The notes: generated by a model from the sequence alone, not told the origin. A stretch of 64,000 nucleotides of DNA from an uncultured virus (IMG/VR IMGVR_UViG_3300020578_000048) (IMGVR_UViG_3300020578_000048); one strand, 5' to 3'; positions 19,565 through 43,991 are shown, counted from the stretch's first letter. Made by a program: numbers and translations.

Positions 19565-20788
19565 TTATAAGCGTTTTTCTCTACCAATGTCCGATCTTTT
19601 TTGTCTTGTTCGTATTGGTGTACCGGGTGGTCTAATATCAACCGGTTTATCGCTTACTACATTAGGGACCCTGACTGGTCGAGGTTTGGCCACTGGCTCT
19701 TCACCAGGTAGCTTTTCACCAGACGCAGATCTTGTTGTGCCTTTGATTTCTGTCTGCGGGTAAGCCATTCTACGCACATCTTTGATGTTAGTGATATAGG
19801 CTGTGCTTATGTGCAACCTAAGTCCTTGCTTTACAAGATCATTGGCATTTTTAAAAAACACAAACATTGGTGGTGTTTTATCTAAACCAATGTAAAGCAC
19901 ACCTTCATCTTTCTTTTTACTAATATAATAGTTGAAATTAGTCTCAGCGTAAAACTTTAGTGTATTGGATAAATTTCCACTTTCTATAGCATCAACAATG
20001 GGCTTGACATTCTCGCCTTGAAAAATCTTACTAACTACCGAATTAACTAATCTTATGTATTCGGGTTTCTTTTCAGCATCCAGACCTTGGCTTATGGTCA
20101 CTGCTGTGGGCAAATTCAATCCACTGCCCTTTACCACGTAGCCTTGCTGTGTTAAGAAATTATTAAGGTCGATGGCTGCTTGTTCATATCCCGAGCCCAC
20201 TGTGACTTCTTGGTCACTGAATCTAGCTGCACCAGCATCTGTGGTTTTGACTTCAATGTCTTTGCCATCAATTAGCAAGTCACCTTTACCTTCTTGTTTA
20301 CTGATATTTTTGCTCAGCACACTGAGCCCGAATTCTCCTTTACCTTGACCAAGGAAAGAAATACTCATTAGATCATCAACTAATTCTTTTATTGCTGGGT
20401 TAGAATCATAACCAGTGACAAAATCGCTGATTATGAGTTTTTTTCCACTCAGTAGTTTTTTTCTATCAACCAAACGATCTTCTCGCCATAACTTGAATAA
20501 TTCTTCACGCTGTTCGGGAGTCATGTCTAAACTCAACACATATCTGGCGATCAATCTTTGTGCTGCTGACACAGTGGGATCTTGTATACGGGTCAATTCT
20601 GTGTTGATAAAACCCATTTTACCACCAGCATGCACGTGACGCAGAAGATCTTCAATATCACGCAATATTTTAATGCTTTCCTCGCTGGGCGGCAGTGTTT
20701 TTATTTTAGCAGCCAAAACGGTTTTTATCGCATCTACTTCACGACTGTTCACATTTTCAAAAAGCAGCAGTAATTCACGCATGTGCAT
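19565..20788 (-). CDS. Putative PD-(D/E)XK nuclease, late-expressed
   Basis: GKGEFGL...KGDLLIDGKDIEVKT; TAAATA 6 nt upstream. Confidence 0.6.
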   Translation of the reverse strand: MHMRELLLLFENVNSREVDAIKTVLAAKIKTLPPSEESIKILRDIEDLLRHVHAGGKMGFINTELTRIQDPTVSAAQRLIARYVLSLDMTPEQREELFKLWREDRLVDRKKLLSGKKLIISDFVTGYDSNPAIKELVDDLMSISFLGQGKGEFGLSVLSKNISKQEGKGDLLIDGKDIEVKTTDAGAARFSDQEVTVGSGYEQAAIDLNNFLTQQGYVVKGSGLNLPTAVTISQGLDAEKKPEYIRLVNSVVSKIFQGENVKPIVDAIESGNLSNTLKFYAETNFNYYISKKKDEGVLYIGLDKTPPMFVFFKNANDLVKQGLRLHISTAYITNIKDVRRMAYPQTEIKGTTRSASGEKLPGEEPVAKPRPVRVPNVVSDKPVDIRPPGTPIRTRQKRSDIGREKRL

Positions 20789-25866: not shown

Positions 25867-27432
25867 TTATGTTGTCATTATGAATGGCATGGGTTCTAAA
25901 AAATTGTCAAAACTGTCACGTAAGTGAAGGTCTATTTCGGCATCAAAATTTTGTAAAACTGTGGACACACGCAGAGCCAACAGCATGGCCAAAACCAAAT
26001 CATCGGTGTATCCTGTTTTTGCAGCAAAACTCCCTCCTGAGGACACGAAATTTTTCAATTCGCTGATGACATTTTCGCTGTGTATGGTCAGTTTACCGGA
26101 TTCCACCATGTTTTTAAATTTGGCACACACGGTGATTTTGCTGCGATTAGTGGTGGTAAAACCTTTGCGATATCTTCTTGTGGAGCCTGTTCTAACAGAT
26201 TCACTGATAAATATGCCTTTGATGTTTTCTTCGCCTAATTCTGCTATGCTGATCAATGCAGCCTCGCCTATGGTATTGTTTTCCACAGTGTAGTAGATCA
26301 TGTTTTCTTGTTCAGTGTGTTCGTGTATGCGATCACATATGTCACGAAGCACAGTGATTTGTGTGGGAATCGGGCTGCGATTGTGCTGCCATTCCGCCAC
26401 TTGTTCACATTTTGGCAATGACAAAACCTGTATGGCTGCAGGATCACCACCGGTGCCCAAGCTGGGATCTAAAGCCACCACATAAGTTTGATCTGCTCTG
26501 GGCTCCACGTACCAACGCACCTGTCCTTGGCGAGTAATGACATTGCGTGGCCGCATGGACAAAAGAAAAAGAGGATTGATCAAAGTCTCTTCATCTCTTA
26601 CAAATTCACATTCCATTTCTCTACGAAATCTTGCTTCTCCCAATTGTGCACGCTGCTCTGTGGCCCAGTGTTCATCGCGTTCCGGGTGTTCATGCCAATA
26701 AGCTCTGAAGGCTCGAAATCCGTTAGCCCCTAACTCTGTGACATTGCCATATTCATCTAAATTTTTATTTGCCAGATTCCAAATATATGCAAATTGATCT
26801 TCGTCGCTGTTGGGAGTACTGGTGATGATGGCTTTGCCGCCAGTGGCCAAAGTGGGCGACACGCTGGTCCAAAATTCTTTGGCCATGCCGGGCCGCACAT
26901 AAGCCAACTCGTCACTGTACAACAAACTGATACTCATGCCTCGACCCGTAGTTTCCGTGGTGGTCTGTGACACTATTCTACTGCCGTTGTCAAAATCCAT
27001 ACTGCCTTTATTATACGTGGTCACACCTGCTCTGATATGATCAGGCACGCTTTCATAAGCGTATCTCACTCGCTGCATGATTTCTTGTGCACCGCCGTAT
27101 TTGTGAGCTGCTATCAACACAGTGGAATCGGGCACAAACATGGCATACCAAAGCAAATAACCTGCTGCCGACGTGGTTTTTCCTGACTGCCTTGGCATGA
27201 GACTGATGCTGAATCGGTATTTGTGATAGGTACTGATCAAACGGCGTTGATATTCATAGGGCCGATACAGCATGCGACCTTTTATGGGATGTTGAATATA
27301 GAAAAAATTCGAGAGAAAATACTCCGGTCCTGTGTCGGAATTCACACAGGCCATGAATTCCTTTATTTGTGATTCTGTATAAGTTTGAGCAGTGTGTGGC
27401 CGTTTGATCAGAGTATAATCTAAAGGTTTCAT
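25867..27432 (-). CDS. Terminase large subunit (T4 gp17-like)
   Basis: PYEYQ, PRQSGKTT Walker A, LLYSDELA Walker B, ITSTPN, ALDPSLGTGGD, TVENN, TDDLVLA. Confidence 0.95.
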   Translation of the reverse strand: MKPLDYTLIKRPHTAQTYTESQIKEFMACVNSDTGPEYFLSNFFYIQHPIKGRMLYRPYEYQRRLISTYHKYRFSISLMPRQSGKTTSAAGYLLWYAMFVPDSTVLIAAHKYGGAQEIMQRVRYAYESVPDHIRAGVTTYNKGSMDFDNGSRIVSQTTTETTGRGMSISLLYSDELAYVRPGMAKEFWTSVSPTLATGGKAIITSTPNSDEDQFAYIWNLANKNLDEYGNVTELGANGFRAFRAYWHEHPERDEHWATEQRAQLGEARFRREMECEFVRDEETLINPLFLLSMRPRNVITRQGQVRWYVEPRADQTYVVALDPSLGTGGDPAAIQVLSLPKCEQVAEWQHNRSPIPTQITVLRDICDRIHEHTEQENMIYYTVENNTIGEAALISIAELGEENIKGIFISESVRTGSTRRYRKGFTTTNRSKITVCAKFKNMVESGKLTIHSENVISELKNFVSSGGSFAAKTGYTDDLVLAMLLALRVSTVLQNFDAEIDLHLRDSFDNFLEPMPFIMTT

Positions 27433-27698
27433 GGCTCCTTAAACCAATAGGGTCTTGAGAACCATAATTTAAACCACTCTGGGGTTCCGGGTTTTATATC
27501 ATGCTGTTTCATGATATTGACTTTTTCCATGGCAGTATGACTGATATTGGTGATATTTTCAGGCAAAGGTTGTTTCACAGTGTCGATTCCTGCCAATTGT
27601 TGTAAGCCACGCAAATCATCATGGTCCAGCACAGCATCAGGTATGTTGACTGTGGATGTATCAAAGATATCTTGTGCCATGATTTTATATTGTTTCAT
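27429..27698 (-). CDS. Hypothetical protein
   Basis: 89 aa; KPGTPEWFKLWFSRPY; coupled on both sides. Confidence 0.75.
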   Translation of the reverse strand: MKQYKIMAQDIFDTSTVNIPDAVLDHDDLRGLQQLAGIDTVKQPLPENITNISHTAMEKVNIMKQHDIKPGTPEWFKLWFSRPYWFKEP

Positions 27699-28444
27699 TG
27701 ACTAATGCCACATTTACCAACAGGACCATTGTTTGATGTAAAACCAGGACATCTGGTTCTTGACTGGGATGATGCCATTTGTTTCAAGGCTGTTTGTGTT
27801 TTTATCCCTATTTTATTCCAGGGTTGAAATTGACTTTTTAATTGGCCATGTTCATGGTAAAACAAAGTCACGCCGCTCATGTTTTGATCAGGAACTATGA
27901 TTGTTCTTGTGACATGATCAAACACACCCCGATCATTGTCGCCAAATGTCACCACCGAAAATTCATCATCTAGTTTCCTCAAGGTTTTAGCCGAGGCAAA
28001 TGTATTTTCAACATCACTAAGATCTATGCTGCCTTTGAAGGCTTGGGATGGTCCTGCCAATGTGGCTGCTGCTGTGCCTGCCACTGCGGCTTGACCTGCT
28101 GTTTTTAAAAACCCCCTACGTCCGGTGTCTATTTCACGCAATTTGGTCATTTCTTCTGGGCGTTTACCAAAAGTATCGTGTACCAAACTATCTAATTTTT
28201 TATGAAATTTTAATTCTTCCGCAGCAGAAGCATTTCTGGCTTCTGTGACTTGACGTTTTGGTAAACCTTTGTGTGAAGTGCTGGCGAAGTCCTTGACGTC
28301 TTTTTTACTCATGGTCTTTGCTGCTTTCTTTAGTTCAGGGCTGGCACCTTTGACTTTCTCGCCTTTTTGCATGGCATGTGCCATGCCCATGAACTTTTGT
28401 TGTTGCTGACTTACTGCCTTTTCGGCAACATGAGTTTCATCTAT
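27695..28444 (-). CDS. C-terminal part of a putative head-internal polyprotein carrying an internal Tat signal (-1 frame continuation of 28441..29580)
   Basis: Frame is open upstream of ATG 28390 through IDETHVAEKAVSQQQQKF to the A10 run; contains GRRGFLK, an Ala-rich h-region and SQA. Confidence 0.65.
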   Translation of the reverse strand: MDETHVAEKAVSQQQQKFMGMAHAMQKGEKVKGASPELKKAAKTMSKKDVKDFASTSHKGLPKRQVTEARNASAAEELKFHKKLDSLVHDTFGKRPEEMTKLREIDTGRRGFLKTAGQAAVAGTAAATLAGPSQAFKGSIDLSDVENTFASAKTLRKLDDEFSVVTFGDNDRGVFDHVTRTIIVPDQNMSGVTLFYHEHGQLKSQFQPWNKIGIKTQTALKQMASSQSRTRCPGFTSNNGPVGKCGISQ

Positions 28445-29580
28445 TTTTTTTTTGACTTGTCGGCAATGGCCTTTTTCATTGGCTCTTTTTTATCGCCGTC
28501 TTTGTCCATGTCTAGAAAATCTGGTTTTTTGCCTTTACTTTCAACCTTAAACGCTGCTAGTTCTTCATTTAAGCGACGCTCAATTTCTGCTAGTGCCTTT
28601 GCTTCACGCATGACCATTGGATTGTCGCCACCGGCAACCTTAGGGAAACTATTTTTTGGACGATGCATATCGTTGCCCTGTGCCAACTGAGGTTCTAGCC
28701 CCTGCACTTCCACAGCAGGTTCATTGGCATAATCTGATTCCACACTGACCTGCATGTGGCCTTCGGGGGCAGGTCGTCTGCCTAGTCCACTAAGTTTTAA
28801 CAATCTAGCCAGTTCTTCAGCAGCCTCACCTTGTGCAGTAACAGTTAGACTCTTATGACCGGTACGAGTGTCTGTGCTGGCATTGATATTCATGCCTGAT
28901 TCTTGTTCAGGTTTACCGCTCATCATAGTTTGACCACAACATTCTTCTAGGTCAGCAGCCTCGTTCATGCGTGATTCTTGTGAGTAGGCACTCATGGCTC
29001 CTTGATAACATTTTTCCAGATCAATTTGTTCATTGATATTTTTACTGCGTTGCCAACTGGCAGCATTTAGTACTCTCACACCAATTTCCTCACCATATTG
29101 CGTGACGAAGGCCATGAAATTATCTTTTATCCATTGTTCTTGTCCCGGAGCATGATTTTCATACACAGATGTCTTGAAAGTACCTGTGGTTTGTTCGTCT
29201 GCATGCAGCTTGTCTTGGGCTTCTTTCACAGGATATTTTTCACCGTCTACTTCAAACTCATTTTGACCAGCGGCTCTGGCATTAGACAACTCACCCGTAA
29301 ATCTGTTGCCCTCGTTGGCTTTTTTCTTGGCTCGCCTTTCTGCTTGTTTTGTGTCAGCATCTTTGCTGGTGTCCTGGCCCGGCAAATCTTTTTTGGTATA
29401 CTGAATACCTTTTTCTGTTTTTTTGGCAGTGTGTCCGGTCATGGTATCACGTGCGACGTGATCACTGTTTCTGCCATGTTCGAGTTCTTGACGGTCACGC
29501 AAGTCATCTAATCTGCCCTCTTTCAGCACAACTTTACAATCAATGCTGTCTAATTTTATCAGTAACTGTTTTAAATCCAT
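28441..29580 (-). CDS. Putative prohead core / internal head protein
   Basis: Highly charged 379 aa; repeated hydrophobic-x-E sites; DMDKDGD motif; head-gene context. Confidence 0.6.
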   Translation of the reverse strand: MDLKQLLIKLDSIDCKVVLKEGRLDDLRDRQELEHGRNSDHVARDTMTGHTAKKTEKGIQYTKKDLPGQDTSKDADTKQAERRAKKKANEGNRFTGELSNARAAGQNEFEVDGEKYPVKEAQDKLHADEQTTGTFKTSVYENHAPGQEQWIKDNFMAFVTQYGEEIGVRVLNAASWQRSKNINEQIDLEKCYQGAMSAYSQESRMNEAADLEECCGQTMMSGKPEQESGMNINASTDTRTGHKSLTVTAQGEAAEELARLLKLSGLGRRPAPEGHMQVSVESDYANEPAVEVQGLEPQLAQGNDMHRPKNSFPKVAGGDNPMVMREAKALAEIERRLNEELAAFKVESKGKKPDFLDMDKDGDKKEPMKKAIADKSKKK

Positions 29581-30160: not shown

Positions 30161-30180
30161 TGTGCAGATCCTGATTTTAT

Positions 30181-30693
30181 TTATTTAGTGTTTTTTCCAG
30201 AATTTTCACAGTCGGTGTTTGTGATCTGTCTAAACAACCTATTTCTGTCTATGACCATGGCCTCTACATCAATGGCAGTGTGAGTCACAGTGTTTGAGGT
30301 TTGGTCCAGTTTTAGTTTTTTCAATTGCAAATCCACTACCCGGAGTTTTTTATCAATTTTGGCCTGTCGAGCCGTGATGGCATGACCCAATAACATGCCA
30401 GCAGTTTGTAGAATTTGACCACTGTATCTGGCTTCAACATTCATGCCTAAATTCATGAGATCTTCAAACTTTTCTTTGGCCAAATCTGCAAGTTCGTCTA
30501 ATTCTTGATCAGTACCATCTAAATCATTTTGACCGGGTAAAGCTTGATCTATTCTGTCCATGATGCTTTGAGCACGAACAATGTCTTGGTGTTTGTTTGA
30601 TAATTTTTTTAATTCATCCATGACGGAGACATCCCCATTATGATTATTATCCGGGCATGCTAGATCAAACAACTGTTCTAATGGTTTGGTCAT
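30181..30693 (-). CDS. Helical protein, candidate terminase small subunit
   Basis: Start MTKPLEQLF 5 nt after TAAATA; two long helices; IDRNRL tail; near terminase. The function is inference. Confidence 0.4.
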   Translation of the reverse strand: MTKPLEQLFDLACPDNNHNGDVSVMDELKKLSNKHQDIVRAQSIMDRIDQALPGQNDLDGTDQELDELADLAKEKFEDLMNLGMNVEARYSGQILQTAGMLLGHAITARQAKIDKKLRVVDLQLKKLKLDQTSNTVTHTAIDVEAMVIDRNRLFRQITNTDCENSGKNTK

Positions 30694-38568: not shown

Positions 38569-38946
38569 TCAAACTCCATATTGGTTACGTTTGACTTTGG
38601 CCACGGGACTCACTGAGTTAACCATTTTTGATTCTTTACTGCCGTGATGTTTCACAGGTTGTTTTACATCAGTTTTCACTGCTTTATACGCTTGACGAAG
38701 CATGTGATGTTCTATTTCGCTGTAGGGCACAGCCACATTATTGGTGCTGTACCAAGTTCTTTCATCTATTGGTAGACTTTTATTGGTGCCATCAGCCATG
38801 GCTGAAGCCATGGCCACACGATAAAAATTCATGTTGCCGTTGGCTTTGTGTCCATCACCAAACACATGTGTGCGATGTAGAGCTCTTTTGTGACTTTTGG
38901 CCAATTTGCCTTGGCGACCTTCACAGACAATTTCAGCAATTTTCAT
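38569..38946 (-). CDS. Hypothetical virion protein
   Basis: Probable start MKIAEIVCE; basic C-terminus. Confidence 0.6.
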   Translation of the reverse strand: MKIAEIVCEGRQGKLAKSHKRALHRTHVFGDGHKANGNMNFYRVAMASAMADGTNKSLPIDERTWYSTNNVAVPYSEIEHHMLRQAYKAVKTDVKQPVKHHGSKESKMVNSVSPVAKVKRNQYGV

Positions 38947-38957
38947 GTCAACAAACA

Positions 38958-40094
38958 TTAACCTATGACAAAACTCAAAGGTACAGCACCATCCACATAG
39001 CGTTTGAGCTCATCTTCTAATTTTTCCATTTGTTCTTTTGCTTCGGCTATGAGTGCAGTGCCATTCATTTGTGTGCCGCCACTGGGACCGGCCAGTTGAC
39101 CAAATTTGCTTCTGGCTTCTCCCAATATGGCTTTGGCCATGCTGTAAGCATATTCTTGCACCCAGGGAAAAATATAAGGATCATTGAGTATCATCACATC
39201 GGGTTTATGATTATAGATGTGCAACATCACAGTTTCTGCAGGTGAGTCTGTGACAGGACTGAAAATTTCGCACCTGTTGACATCAAATCCGGTGACCGAC
39301 ACAGCAGCCAAAGACTGTGTGGCTGTGATGAATATTCTATTAGTGGTCACATCCACTGATTGCACTTGGTATTGGCCATTATAACCCACCACAGCACAAT
39401 TTTTTATTGTCAAAGCTGCGCCTGCTGTGATGTTCATCTGAGTTTGATTGGTGGTGATGGTGATCACACTGCCCACAGACAAACCTGTGGCAGTGATTGA
39501 ATTGGCTCTTATGGGATTGCGACCTGAAGCTGGTATCTTGCGCACCAATGTCAGTTTTCTAGTGGCCGGATTCCAAGTGAAATTAATATGACCGCCAAAC
39601 ATGCGCATGGCCAATTCTTGATATTGAGTGAACAATTCGTAGTTGGCCAGCCCGCCCACACGACCCGCCACCAACATGTAAGTGTTGAGAAATCCCGAAG
39701 CAAAAGGTTCAAATTGACTGGCAGTGGTGCCTGTGACGCTGCCAATGCCTCTGCGGAAAATCTGTCTCACATGAACTATTTCCTTGGGCAAAATGTATTC
39801 CTGAACTTCTGGCAATAGATCTAAAAAAGCATAACTTTCTTCTGCACTGTTAGATGATTTTTGTCTGTATTTAATCAAAGCCTGACGTATGACTAGATCA
39901 TAGTGTTCTTGATCCAGTTCCACATCCACCAAACCATCGCCCAGCCGTAATCTGATGTAATCTCTGATTTGATTTTTGCAATAATCAAGCGAATTTGACA
40001 ACTGACCAGTATCAAAAGCCATGGGACCGGGTCCACCCAAAGACTCAGCTGTGACACTGAGTCTTTCGTTTAGACCACTGGCAATGATGGGCAT
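38958..40094 (-). CDS. Neck protein (T4 gp13-like)
   Basis: YIRLRLGDGLVDVELDQEH, WVQEYAYSMAKAILGEARSKF, GGTQMNG, EMEKLE-like end. Confidence 0.85.
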   Translation of the reverse strand: MPIIASGLNERLSVTAESLGGPGPMAFDTGQLSNSLDYCKNQIRDYIRLRLGDGLVDVELDQEHYDLVIRQALIKYRQKSSNSAEESYAFLDLLPEVQEYILPKEIVHVRQIFRRGIGSVTGTTASQFEPFASGFLNTYMLVAGRVGGLANYELFTQYQELAMRMFGGHINFTWNPATRKLTLVRKIPASGRNPIRANSITATGLSVGSVITITTNQTQMNITAGAALTIKNCAVVGYNGQYQVQSVDVTTNRIFITATQSLAAVSVTGFDVNRCEIFSPVTDSPAETVMLHIYNHKPDVMILNDPYIFPWVQEYAYSMAKAILGEARSKFGQLAGPSGGTQMNGTALIAEAKEQMEKLEDELKRYVDGAVPLSFVIG

Positions 40095-40140: not shown

Positions 40141-41319
40141 TCACAAGACCCTGAGCAACACAGTGTCTGTGTTCACGCTGCCGTTGAGTGGTGTGTCAAC
40201 AGCACGAATGTCTCTTAGAAAAGTTCGCAATGACACTTTATTTGCCTTGGACCAGATGGCCAGCTGTTCTTGAGGTTTACGGAGAGTCTTGGTCACACTG
40301 GTCACAGTGTCAAATCCTGTAATTTTAGTGCCTTTCACGCTCAAGGAGCTGTGTTCTTCCGCATGATAGCAACCCAATTTTTTTGTTTTAACATTAAATA
40401 CCCAGAGCTGTTTGGCACCAACAATGTCCACAGGATTCACACTGACCAAGGCCAAGGCCTGATGATCTTTGCAATATCGTAATTTACTGACCAAACGCTC
40501 TCGACTCAGAGGTTTCTTGCGTGGCTTTATTTTGGTGACCTTTTTGAGGTTTTGATATTTTGCAATTCCCACCAAAAGATCAGCCAGAAAGGTAAAAACA
40601 CGTTTATAATCACGAGCCCGATAATGACGAAATGACTCCAAGAGCTGGACATCTTTACCTGCCTGTGCTGACATGAAATTATCAGTGTGTTTTTGCACCC
40701 AGTGTGCGTATTTATACAGTTGTCTAACAGGAACCACATGAGTTGTTAAAAACTCACAAGCATCAAAAGTCACAACATCACCACGGATGACCTGATCAAG
40801 CCAACCTTCCCAGTCGCCTAATAGTTCATGATCACGATCTGTGCTTGATTGTTCCTGAACACGAGTTCCGGTCACCGCCGATTCTGATCTGACAATTTGT
40901 GTGTGCACAGGTTCAAGTTGACTTTGAACATGCACACAGGCCCCGCGCACACGATCAATCACGTATTGACGAATTCTGGGCAGCATGGGCATGCCTTGTC
41001 TGTGGGCCAAAATCAAACTGCACACAGTCATGGGAATATGTCGATCTGGCACCATTTTAAACTGCTTGACTTGTTCTGGATCAAGATCGGTCTGTTGGGT
41101 CAGCCAATGCTCCAACCAGGGACGAGCTTGACGAGTGGAGTAGTGATAGTTGTAATAGTAAAAACTACGGCCCAGACAGTGATCGAAATGTGACTTGCTG
41201 TAGCTCAGCGCAGCTTGTGTGTCCCATTTGGGCTCTGGACCAGTGTGTTTTTCGTCTGCTTGTCTTTGAGTTCTTACTTTTTTTGATGAGCCGGGTTGGG
41301 TGATTAGAGATTTGGTCAT
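40141..41319 (-). CDS. Hypothetical phage protein
   Basis: Probable start MTKSLIT at 41319, downstream of an extended -10 TGTTACAAT (41359-41351). Confidence 0.7.
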   Translation of the reverse strand: MTKSLITQPGSSKKVRTQRQADEKHTGPEPKWDTQAALSYSKSHFDHCLGRSFYYYNYHYSTRQARPWLEHWLTQQTDLDPEQVKQFKMVPDRHIPMTVCSLILAHRQGMPMLPRIRQYVIDRVRGACVHVQSQLEPVHTQIVRSESAVTGTRVQEQSSTDRDHELLGDWEGWLDQVIRGDVVTFDACEFLTTHVVPVRQLYKYAHWVQKHTDNFMSAQAGKDVQLLESFRHYRARDYKRVFTFLADLLVGIAKYQNLKKVTKIKPRKKPLSRERLVSKLRYCKDHQALALVSVNPVDIVGAKQLWVFNVKTKKLGCYHAEEHSSLSVKGTKITGFDTVTSVTKTLRKPQEQLAIWSKANKVSLRTFLRDIRAVDTPLNGSVNTDTVLLRVL

Positions 41320-41394
41320 GTCATTGATCCCAAAAAAGTGACAATAAGCTATTGTAACACACAGATTGGTGTGTGCCATGGCAATCTTGGGTCC

Positions 41395-41416
41395 TGTGTG
41401 GCATTTTTGCCACACA
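41395..41416. promoter_or_regulatory. Palindromic operator-like site
   Basis: TGTGTGGCA-TTTT-TGCCACACA between divergent genes; same core as 10804-10821. Confidence 0.6.
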
Positions 41417-41464
41417 TTGATCATGAACAGAGAATGCCATAAATATCACAACAGGAGAAAAAAA

Positions 41465-42547
41465 ATTCCCAGAATAAGTTTATGGCGAGATGGTCGACAC
41501 AGCAACGACTATCGTTTTTTCGACAGACGCATATCAGAACTCATGAACATGTCTGGCACTGGAGTGCTGTGTCATAAATATCTTGGACCTGCGCTCGACG
41601 CTGAGCCAAATGATCTCACTCAACCACAGCATGTGACTCAAAGCGAACTCAACATTCAAGATCTGTTATTTTTGGAAAATCGTAACAGAAAATACGAAGA
41701 ACACGTGTATAAATTACGTGGCGTGTATCAAGTGACAGATTCCAGTTTTGACCTCAGTCAATTTGGTTTGTTTTTACAAACAGGCACTTTGTTCATGAGT
41801 TTTCACATCAATGACATGATAGACATTCTAGGCAGACGCATCATAAATGGTGATGTGTTAGAGCTAGAACATCTCATGGATTATGAAGTGTTGGATCCTG
41901 ACCTGCCCGCAGCCTTGAAACGGTTTTTTGTGGTGGGAGATTGTATTAGATCCGCAGAAGGTTACAGTGCCACTTGGTGGCCACACATTTGGCGATGTAG
42001 AATCACTCCTTTGGTTGACAGTCAAGAATACAAAGACATCTTAACCAGAATAAAAATCAATGATGATGCTGTGACACCAATCAAGGACATACTCAGCACT
42101 TATCAACGCTACATCAATATCAATGATGCTGTGATCGCACAAAGCGAACAAGATGTGCCTGTGAGTGGTTATGACACCAGTCCTTTATTTCATGTCAGCA
42201 AAGATCAAACTTCGGCCAACTACAAAGTACAAGGCTATTTGACCGGATCAGGACTGCCGCCAAATGGTCTGGCTCGAACCGAAGGCATTGTGTTTCCTGT
42301 GAATGCCACAGTGGGTCAATATCATTTGAGAACTGATTATAGCCCGCCAAGACTTTTTAGATTTGATGGAAGAAAATGGCAAAAAATTGAAGATCAAGTT
42401 CGTACCAATTACACCAACAACAGCACCGACAATCACACTCAACGCAACAGTTTTGTGACAAATTCTCAAACTTATAAAGACGATAGAGATCGCGTCATGC
42501 CACAAAGCCAAAATCTCAAAGACATTCTCAAACCCAAAGCTGATTGA
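41465..42547 (+). CDS. Neck / head-closure protein (T4 gp14-like); probable ATT start
   Basis: IQDLLFLENRNRKY, FDLSQFGLFL, GDVLELEH; TAAATA 41440-41445, AGGAG 41453-41457, ATT 41465. Confidence 0.7.
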   Translation: MPRISLWRDGRHSNDYRFFDRRISELMNMSGTGVLCHKYLGPALDAEPNDLTQPQHVTQSELNIQDLLFLENRNRKYEEHVYKLRGVYQVTDSSFDLSQFGLFLQTGTLFMSFHINDMIDILGRRIINGDVLELEHLMDYEVLDPDLPAALKRFFVVGDCIRSAEGYSATWWPHIWRCRITPLVDSQEYKDILTRIKINDDAVTPIKDILSTYQRYININDAVIAQSEQDVPVSGYDTSPLFHVSKDQTSANYKVQGYLTGSGLPPNGLARTEGIVFPVNATVGQYHLRTDYSPPRLFRFDGRKWQKIEDQVRTNYTNNSTDNHTQRNSFVTNSQTYKDDRDRVMPQSQNLKDILKPKAD

Positions 42548-42548
42548 C

Positions 42549-43991
42549 ATGGCATATTTCTACTCCGGGCAGATCAGAAGATTTTTATCTCAGTTCATCA
42601 GAGTCATGAGCAATTTTGAAATAAACTTAGGCAAAAGTTCACAATCAAACCAAACTCTTCTGCGGGTGCCTGTGATTTATGGGGACAGTCAAAGACAAGT
42701 GTCTGCCATATTGACCAATGTTAGTGAAAATTCTCTGCCCACAGTGCCGGCCATAGCTGTGTATGTGTCGGCTTTGAATTATGATCGTCAAAGAGTACAA
42801 GAACCACAGCATGTGAGTAAAATGCAGCTGAGAACCAGAGCACAAGATCCCATCACAGGTGCCTACACAGAATTTCAAGGTCAAAGACTCACAGTGGAAA
42901 GACTCATGCCTGTGCCTTATCAACTGCAGATAAAAGCAGATATTTGGACCAGCAACACAGATCAAAAACTGCAATTGCTGGAGCAGATATTGGTGTTGTT
43001 TAACCCAAGTTTGGAATTACAGAGCTCAGACAGTTATGTGGATTGGACCAGTCTCAGTTATATCACTTTGAATTCCACCACTTTTTCATCTCGGACGGTG
43101 CCTGTGGGCGCCGAAGACAGCATAGACGTGGCCAACATAACTTTTGATTTGCCTGTGTGGCTGAGTGCACCTGCCAAAGTCAAGCGTCAAGGAGTCATTG
43201 AAAAGATTTTGGCTGATTTCTATGATCCCATGGGCAGCATTGACTGGGCCACTGGTCAATTTGACACAGGCACCAGTGTGTTTTTGACCAGAAAAATATA
43301 CACTCCCATTGACATGAATGTGGTGCTGATCGATGACCAGCTGAAATTGTATTTGAGTGACAACGAAGAGCCTTTTTCAGATCGCATTGATCCCTCGCTG
43401 CCAGTGGGAGACTGGAACGTGGCCATACGAAGTTTTGGCGAACTCAGCGGTCTAGGACGTGGCAGTGACATATTGAAAAATGGTATCAGTCAAATCAGAT
43501 TACAGAATCATCACAGTGTGGTGGTGGGAACTGTGAGTTATCATCCCACAGATCGCAGTCTACTGCTGTTTTCTGTGGACATAGACACTGTGCCAGTGAA
43601 CACCATGCCTCCGGTTACAGCCATCATAGATCCACAGATGTTAAAAATCACTGCTCAGATCTCCTTTCCTGCAGCAGGCACCAGGTTTCTCATACTCAAT
43701 GACATTGGTGATGTCAGCAACAATGACCAAAATCCTTATACTTTAGATGGTGCTCCTGTGTGGGATCGTCTGGGTTATCCCACCTTGGTGGCCAGTGCAA
43801 ACAGCATCATAGAATTCACTGGCTCACATTGGTTGGTGAAATTTGACAGTGCAGCAGTTGGATCTCAGAATGTCATCCATTATGTCACAAACTTGACCAC
43901 AGGAATTCAATACAAATGGCAAAATCAACAATGGCAAAAATCGGTGGAAGGACGTTACGGAGTGGGATCATGGAGTTTCGTCCCAAATTAA
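42549..43991 (+). CDS. Tail sheath stabiliser / tail terminator (T4 gp15-like)
   Basis: YFYSGQIRRF, RVPVIYG, MPVPY, QLLEQILVLFNP. Confidence 0.85.
   Translation: MAYFYSGQIRRFLSQFIRVMSNFEINLGKSSQSNQTLLRVPVIYGDSQRQVSAILTNVSENSLPTVPAIAVYVSALNYDRQRVQEPQHVSKMQLRTRAQDPITGAYTEFQGQRLTVERLMPVPYQLQIKADIWTSNTDQKLQLLEQILVLFNPSLELQSSDSYVDWTSLSYITLNSTTFSSRTVPVGAEDSIDVANITFDLPVWLSAPAKVKRQGVIEKILADFYDPMGSIDWATGQFDTGTSVFLTRKIYTPIDMNVVLIDDQLKLYLSDNEEPFSDRIDPSLPVGDWNVAIRSFGELSGLGRGSDILKNGISQIRLQNHHSVVVGTVSYHPTDRSLLLFSVDIDTVPVNTMPPVTAIIDPQMLKITAQISFPAAGTRFLILNDIGDVSNNDQNPYTLDGAPVWDRLGYPTLVASANSIIEFTGSHWLVKFDSAAVGSQNVIHYVTNLTTGIQYKWQNQQWQKSVEGRYGVGSWSFVPN

Follow-up and report, generated by a model that had tools for sequence, protein, structure and literature searches.

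In an uncultured T4-type jumbo myophage, a gene beside the large terminase encodes a charged, modular protein in two reading frames that meet at a run of ten A, and the second of these frames carries a twin-arginine (Tat) signal placed directly behind a hydrophobic-x-Glu (hxE) triplet. In relatives, the slip site, the junction between hxE and signal and the arginine pair (RR) itself are conserved, and the Tat signal is swapped for Sec-type ones. As far as sequence comparison can establish it, this architecture is real and conserved and lies on the known route of the T4 internal proteins; it is apparently undescribed, and the delivery mechanism that it suggests is plausible. We propose, tentatively and somewhat short of even confidence, a two-stage delivery in jumbo T4-type phages, in which polyproteins loaded into the head would be cut by the prohead protease into modules, interchangeable cassettes would select host export to the periplasm or the membranes, and a poly-A slip would set the dose.

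The window, that is, the whole stretch of 64,000 nucleotides that was analysed (IMG/VR IMGVR_UViG_3300020578_000048), is part of a PA5oct-like phage of this type. All 24 listed sequencing runs containing the stretch are lake or freshwater metagenomes. In a scan of the window proteins, genes for the tail sheath, tail tube, head closure and large terminase surround the locus, which lies just upstream of the terminase (Table 1), in the head/terminase block where the first-pass annotation had placed it. PA5oct (NC_071039) has its genes between tail tube and terminase in this order as well, and its gp281, annotated ESI-MS/MS (virion-detected), occupies the gene position of ORF A. Pairwise comparison of ORF A with gp281 gave no significant similarity, and their likeness is marginal (5.4 bits versus 4.6 for the best of 500 shuffles); the upstream 192-aa gene matches its PA5oct homolog at 27% over 104 aa (E 3e-10, pairwise). 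No cultured phage matching ORF A or a Tat junction query was found. ORF A is probably a head core or internal protein. Minus-strand TAAATA, which we take from T4 to be a late promoter motif, is absent between 25869 and 30178, and the locus shows no DNA repeat structure of note. Elsewhere in the window, the proteins of 19565-20788 and 38569-38958 (minus strand) have short N-termini ending in hxE (residues 9-11 and 11-13) and are candidates for other head-targeted proteins. Two structural genes, for a phrog_11591 virion protein and a T4 gp15-like sheath stabiliser, lie on the opposite strand (41366-43991, plus), the former overlapping the start of the minus-strand gene at 40141-41424.

Table 1. 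Features of the locus and its surroundings, in window coordinates.
Feature	Position	Strand	Remarks
Large terminase, T4-type	25867..27432	-	Context marker; 52% identity to Pseudomonas phages PA5oct, MIJ3 and Paride
Cargo, 114 aa	27695..28039	-	Beta-meander and C-terminal helix (core of ~75 aa), then a tail with two Cys
Tat-type signal	28040..28132	-	IDTG, RRGFLK (28120-28103), uncharged h-region, SQA c-region
KLRE	28133..28144	-	Putative prohead-protease site, presumed to be cut
Short module, 30 aa	28151..28240	-	Behind QVTE
DUF3008 module	28253..28420	-	-1 frame, behind HVAE (28432-28421)
ORF A, 379 aa	28441..29580	-	Charged modular protein; stops at TAG (28443-28441) directly after A10
A10 slippage run	28444..28453	-	Adjoins the ORF A stop; the frames are joined by one extra A or by a -1 shift
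Upstream gene, 192 aa	29582..30160	-	Homologous to a PA5oct protein annotated virion-detected
Two overlapping TAAATA motifs	30178..30187	-	Possible late promoter; nearest minus-strand copies upstream of the locus

The stretch from 27695 to 29580 had initially been taken for a single reading frame, a view that has to be abandoned, as a real stop ends ORF A and HVAE, QVTE, KLRE, the Tat motif and the cargo all belong to the -1 frame (frame B), which ends at the stop at 27695. Two contigs from other runs cross the ORF A stop without a gap (X6 record 27 and X22 record 11, the latter with 26 substitutions) and the IMG/VR contig L006 is identical, so that the stop is considered genuine; these contigs, together with the conservation of the junction in relatives, rule out an assembly error at the A-run. 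No ATG, GTG or TTG precedes the conserved DUF3008 start in frame B, whose first ATG (28390) falls inside this domain, and a start there would cut off its conserved beginning. Because the slip junction is missed, gene callers truncate such proteins, and the form stored here is one of 231 aa that starts at this internal Met. In four ORF A orthologs without DUF3008 (L001-L004), the frame ends AAA AAG TGA and overlaps, in the -1 frame, the GTG of the next small gene (the counterpart of window 27429-27698), an arrangement in which translational coupling, or an ancestral slip, is possible. The terminase frame of another relative (L082:2200) is interrupted by one stop, which replaces a Tyr of the relatives and is probably a sequence error.

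The A10 run is the longest homopolymer listed for the window. To survey its conservation, metagenome and viral contigs were searched with a phase-free pattern; of the 90 matches, those followed by a DUF3008 start were kept, leaving 12 distinct junctions. One is that of this phage (L478), another has a near-identical frame B (L461), and the other junctions show ~76-85% DNA identity. A run of A9-10 is present in 12/12 and is, in each of these loci, the only coding-strand run of nine or more A; upstream of it, lysine codons in the 12 loci number 206 AAA versus 120 AAG. In eleven junctions the run is followed by a stop in the -1 phase, and the twelfth, on a 1.3-kb contig (L435), has one extra A and is in frame, a pattern that makes programmed slippage at A10 likely. 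The run never falls below nine A, the threshold for transcriptional slippage, which favours slippage of the RNA polymerase over a ribosomal shift. As for the latter, the heptamer of the form X XXY YYZ is A AAA AAA here and A AAA AAG in relatives; the 71 nt downstream fold with a z of -1.45, no clear structure being seen, and the Shine-Dalgarno (SD) energy just upstream of the ORF A stop is -1.6, with no clear frameshift stimulator. The two parts are joined in a single frame in a 636-aa protein (P0072), fused at the ORF A/DUF3008 junction, and likewise in L100, L107 and P0041; the in-frame state may reflect natural alleles, or errors in the homopolymer. L100 shows another -1 overlap at a junction rich in Lys (380-742); the frame that it opens lacks a Met ahead of an x-E site and a Sec-type signal, and a separate slip may control a signal module there.

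The eleven hydrophobic-x-E sites listed at first pass are all present in the sequence, in two frames. Their placement at module starts, which is non-random, stands, whereas the suggestion that they are unusually many does not: ORF A contains 9 triplets, the first ending at residue 21, versus 6.9 in shuffles (p 0.23), and when the upstream part of frame B is included, the count is 13 versus 8.6 (p 0.06). With the count in ORF A at chance level, x-E density was dropped as evidence. All 53 distinct contexts of DUF3008 (PF11450), in 80 loci, start directly behind [LIVMF]xE. The copy in this phage scores 24.7 bits against a Pfam gathering cut-off of 24 and covers positions 1-56 of the 57 of the profile; the family has 159 records, nearly all from cyanophages, the listed rows being annotated as hypothetical. 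The 30-aa module that follows is the last of the protein in L082 and is followed in L168 by a Tat module of another kind; KLRE stands, as had been described, directly before the Tat fragment.

Sites cut by the T4 prohead protease have the form I/L-x-E. A gp21-type head protease is encoded, with a portal and a major head protein carrying LAE at residues 41-43, by G002, a complete relative of 355 kb whose terminase is 65% identical, and such a protease occurs in four of five large related records, G002 included. None was found among the window proteins scanned, nor in five fragments searched for the gene, the latter result carrying no weight. Cutting after Glu is described for the proteases of T4, phiKZ and SPN3US in passages of PMC5694885; excerpts of the T4 literature also state that gp21 is active only on prohead completion and that degradation reduces gp22, gp67 and gp68, proteins of the core, to peptides. 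According to a table in PMC7411985, the SPN3US ejection protein gp53 has the mature N-terminus GWK after AQE; the Sec-type modules of L190, L244 and P0022 similarly start x-E/GW(K/R), a likeness that may be coincidence.

Each element of the proposed signal was recovered where it had been described: IDTG-RRGFLK from 28132, the Ala/Gly h-region as an uncharged stretch of 22 residues, and the signal-peptidase-like SQA-FK at 28048-28034. Read from 28150, the fragment scores 19.1 bits with the Tat profile TIGR01409 (curated cut-off 16.7). The residue before RR is Gly, versus S/T in the S/T-RRxFLK motif; the best 12-residue hydropathy of the h-region is 1.57, versus a median of 1.52 for the cellular matches listed (97); and the putative peptidase I site is S-Q-A, replaced by S-Q-G in one strain variant. 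RR lies 90 residues behind the first frame-B ATG, and the signal is thus not at the N-terminus of the translation product; to bring it there, either a cut or initiation at 28150 would be needed.

The association of this signal with hxE is characteristic of the viral sequences. Viral contigs and cellular genomes were scanned with the same RRxFLKGLGA pattern and distinct contexts were counted, the cellular figures referring to the matches listed: hxE stands two residues before RR in 28/51 viral versus 1/97 cellular contexts, the signal is internal in 29/51 versus 9/97, and an internal signal with hxE no more than five residues ahead of it occurs in 23 versus none. The Fisher value for this contrast with the cellular matches listed (4e-15) overstates independence, since the viral hits are related and the counts are not independent events. 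Conservation of RRxFLK in homologs had been set beforehand as a test, and for this a junction pattern free of RR was used. Of its 52 readable matches, found in 60 loci, 38 are distinct; 33 of these lie behind hxE, and RR is kept in 33/33, written with mixed codons (AGR 31, CGN 35). A second viral pattern placed 40 of 66 distinct contexts in the hxE class, within which 28 have AxA after the h-region, 12 lack AxA, one has a lipobox, and 36 are followed downstream by a later hxE. The comparative expectation of the first-pass annotation holds: the junction [LIVM]xE-x(1-5)-RRxFL is conserved in many related phages with varying cargo, and it is nearly absent from the cellular Tat signals listed. In five relatives (L173, L177, L183, L186, L210) the motif lies only 7-12 residues from the start codon. 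A different class of very long viral proteins (L161, L174, L178, L189, L203, L209, L212) has an internal RRxFLK and an Ala-rich stretch and no hxE, several of them continuing with Pro-Lys instead of AxA; in a separate group of phages, these might serve as anchors that stay uncut.

Signals are also exchanged at a given site. At the orthologous position, the protein of L082 ends before the signal, those of L085, L407 and L435 have a Sec-type signal instead of the Tat one, and the Tat module is absent from close relatives. A regular expression found one Tat and one Sec-type module behind x-E among the 736 ORFs of G002, and thus the signal module is regarded as accessory and rare per genome. The cargoes behind hxE-class Tat signals differ widely and are mostly unnamed. 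One consists of LysM and a lytic transglycosylase (L186), and another follows a Tat signal with a lipobox (L177). A Sec-type lipobox module behind INE was read by eye in L207; judged by sequence features, these three cargoes are of envelope type. In L083 (1-855), a Sec-type signal module bounded by x-E sites lies inside the ORF A ortholog.

The domain of roughly 115 aa with two Cys near its end, as first annotated, corresponds to the 114-aa C-terminal part. A direct search with the 151-aa fragment, over the length range searched, found only this phage's own protein, and phmmer with the cargo against the fetched loci returned only its own copies. A likeness to a domain in six loci was first seen by eye; the profile built from these six aligned with the cargo at an hhalign probability of 62%, and with an HMM from 58 further members the cargo ranks first among non-members (E 0.02 in 15,349 segments). 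It shares 27% identity over 71 aa with the cargo of the ortholog P0041, and is probably a distant member of an unnamed phage domain family. Its first 93 residues are predicted to form a beta-meander and a C-terminal helix (pLDDT 87), the same fold being predicted for a family member (pLDDT 91). Fold searches gave generic matches (best Z 6.9 for the cargo, polo-box domains, rmsd 4.7 over 77 residues; best Z 4.4 for the family member), and no function was drawn from them. BFVD returned no fold match at E 0.001 or better, the PDB sequence search nothing below E 0.2, and the ESM Atlas no match above 0.80.

The family search gave 62 hits, of which four with many repeated stretches were left out. 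Of the 58 examined, 35 have no signal, 18 carry one of Tat type and 5 one of Sec type (P0034 was also flagged as Sec-type but was rejected on inspection by eye); all 23 signals, including 18/18 of the Tat ones, stand behind x-E. In P0010 the module follows a Tat signal and in P0012 the same module start lies directly behind x-E, a pair that speaks for insertion of a signal cassette at the cut site. With 35 of 58 members lacking a signal, export is not required by the domain, and this speaks against a role in the periplasm alone.

From these data we infer a pathway that we regard as the best reading of the locus, at nearly even chances of being right. The late gene would make mostly the 379-aa ORF A protein, and slippage at A10 would yield a longer form of ~628 aa with three more modules, keeping the copy number of these accessory modules low. 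The protein would enter the prohead core, where a gp21-type protease would cleave behind hydrophobic-x-Glu where modules begin; cleavage at KLRE would produce a 145-aa piece headed by the Tat signal. This piece would be ejected with the DNA and moved by the host Tat system across the inner membrane, and signal peptidase I would release the cargo of 114 aa into the new host's periplasm, where it would most likely bind a host envelope or defence protein. In this view the signal, whether of Tat, Sec or lipoprotein type, would act as an exchangeable address label lying between cut site and module.

It had been supposed that the cargo is hidden from Tat in the producing cell. This is not assured, since in Tat substrates of classes IV and V the signal is internal and works without being cut, the one of FecR (class V) lying behind a folded domain, as described in passages of PMC13673990; moreover, nothing masks the motif in the five relatives where it lies close to the start codon. 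The signal might then act in the producing cell, the slip product being exported through its internal signal in the manner of FecR, or after cutting outside the capsid, and the cargo working late, e.g., in exclusion or lysis timing, and never through the virion. We consider this unlikely, though with a real chance of being correct, which the relatives with near-N-terminal signals and the lytic transglycosylase cargo add to; it leaves unexplained, however, why the signal stands 1-5 residues behind hxE in phages and not in cells, and why modules are mostly closed by a further hxE (36/40), and it has against it the restriction of gp21 activity, in the T4 excerpts, to the completed prohead. Less probable still is that the signal peptide is itself the effector or anchor, as an inner-membrane tether or a decoy for TatC, Sec or signal peptidase, with the cargo secondary. 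The cassette is indeed far more conserved than the sequence behind it, the cargo family is often without signal and 12/40 hxE-class signals lack AxA; but 28/40 keep it, one signal has a lipobox, and the interchange of Tat and Sec types before one cargo family fits an address better than a specific inhibitor.

An ordinary Tat-secreted protein, of 151 aa from ATG 28150 or of 231 aa from 28390, is improbable. An in-frame ATG does stand 10 codons before RR, the fragment from it passes TIGR01409, and the 231-aa form is the one stored by gene callers; but neither start has an SD (+0.4 kcal/mol at 28150 and +1.1 at 28390, versus -5.6 for ORF A), weak evidence given that 5/13 ordinary window starts also score above -2, and only 3/29 internal junctions have, within 15 codons, a start with an SD of -5 or better. 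Besides, the Met of 28150 is not kept in L082 or L168, where Lys or another residue is found, and the ATG at 28390 cuts DUF3008 after its conserved start. An equally small chance is given to the frame-B modules being near-neutral passengers of a scaffold-like core protein, chopped up and lost, with the Tat cassette spreading by linker recombination. The degradation of gp22, gp67 and gp68 reported in the T4 excerpts and the absence of the Tat module from close relatives would agree with this, but invariant RR with mixed codons, the confident fold prediction for the cargo (pLDDT 87) and a slip site kept across 76-86% DNA identity would not.

Should the favoured pathway of capsid packaging, cutting and export in the new host prove true, phages would also place proteins in the host periplasm at infection, before phage gene expression, by borrowing host export; a large unannotated set of candidate envelope effectors would be findable by the rule of x-E then signal, and a protease-unmasked type of Tat substrate would be added to those known. 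A literature search covering few subscription papers found no description of a protease-unmasked export signal in virion proteins and no paper naming DUF3008. The excerpts of PMC7824862 do not mention twin-arginine, signal peptide or polyprotein, those of PMC13282480 do not mention twin-arginine, Tat, periplasm, polyprotein or frameshift, and the Tat passage of bioRxiv 2026.09.13.751334 concerns host fimbriae; excerpts of further related literature were also considered (PMC3012670, PMC7318152, PMC10274946). The injected phage proteins in these literature passages act in the cytoplasm.

Several known systems share parts of this architecture. PA5oct gp281, in the same gene order, is likewise a charged protein with many x-E sites and is annotated as virion-detected, but no twin-arginine motif is visible in it. 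Short major and long minor products are made from one gene by slippage at the A9 run of Thermus thermophilus dnaX and by phage T7 gp10A/10B. The present gene would resemble these in giving a short major and a long minor product at an A-run, but here the extension would consist of swappable head-cargo modules. In bipartite thylakoid transit peptides, removal of the first targeting segment by a protease uncovers a twin-arginine signal that serves a second transport. The same two-step unmasking is proposed here, the first step being chloroplast import in that case and capsid packaging and injection in this one.

With regard to Tat substrates, passages of PMC13673990 define class I by a cleaved N-terminal signal and classes IV and V by an internal one (the streptomycete Rieske protein and FecR). 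With class I the signal described here shares RRxFLK, the lack of charge in the h-region and a site like that of peptidase I; with classes IV and V it shares the internal position. Being internal yet apparently cleavable, behind a viral protease site, its layout is found in none of the five classes of that source. The T4 internal proteins IPI-III and Alt carry a capsid-targeting sequence and are processed by gp21, and the known T4 internal proteins act on cytoplasmic targets such as GmrSD and RNA polymerase (passages of PMC9958956, PMC7411985, PMC5694885 and PMC12373910). Like them, the protein described here belongs to a phage type with T4-type head genes (seen in the complete relative), has modules that start behind Glu and a variable small cargo, and is likely to be packaged and injected; unlike them, single proteins with one short N-terminal leader, it would form a chain of modules, extended under the control of a slip and carrying, behind the cut, a signal for export by the host.
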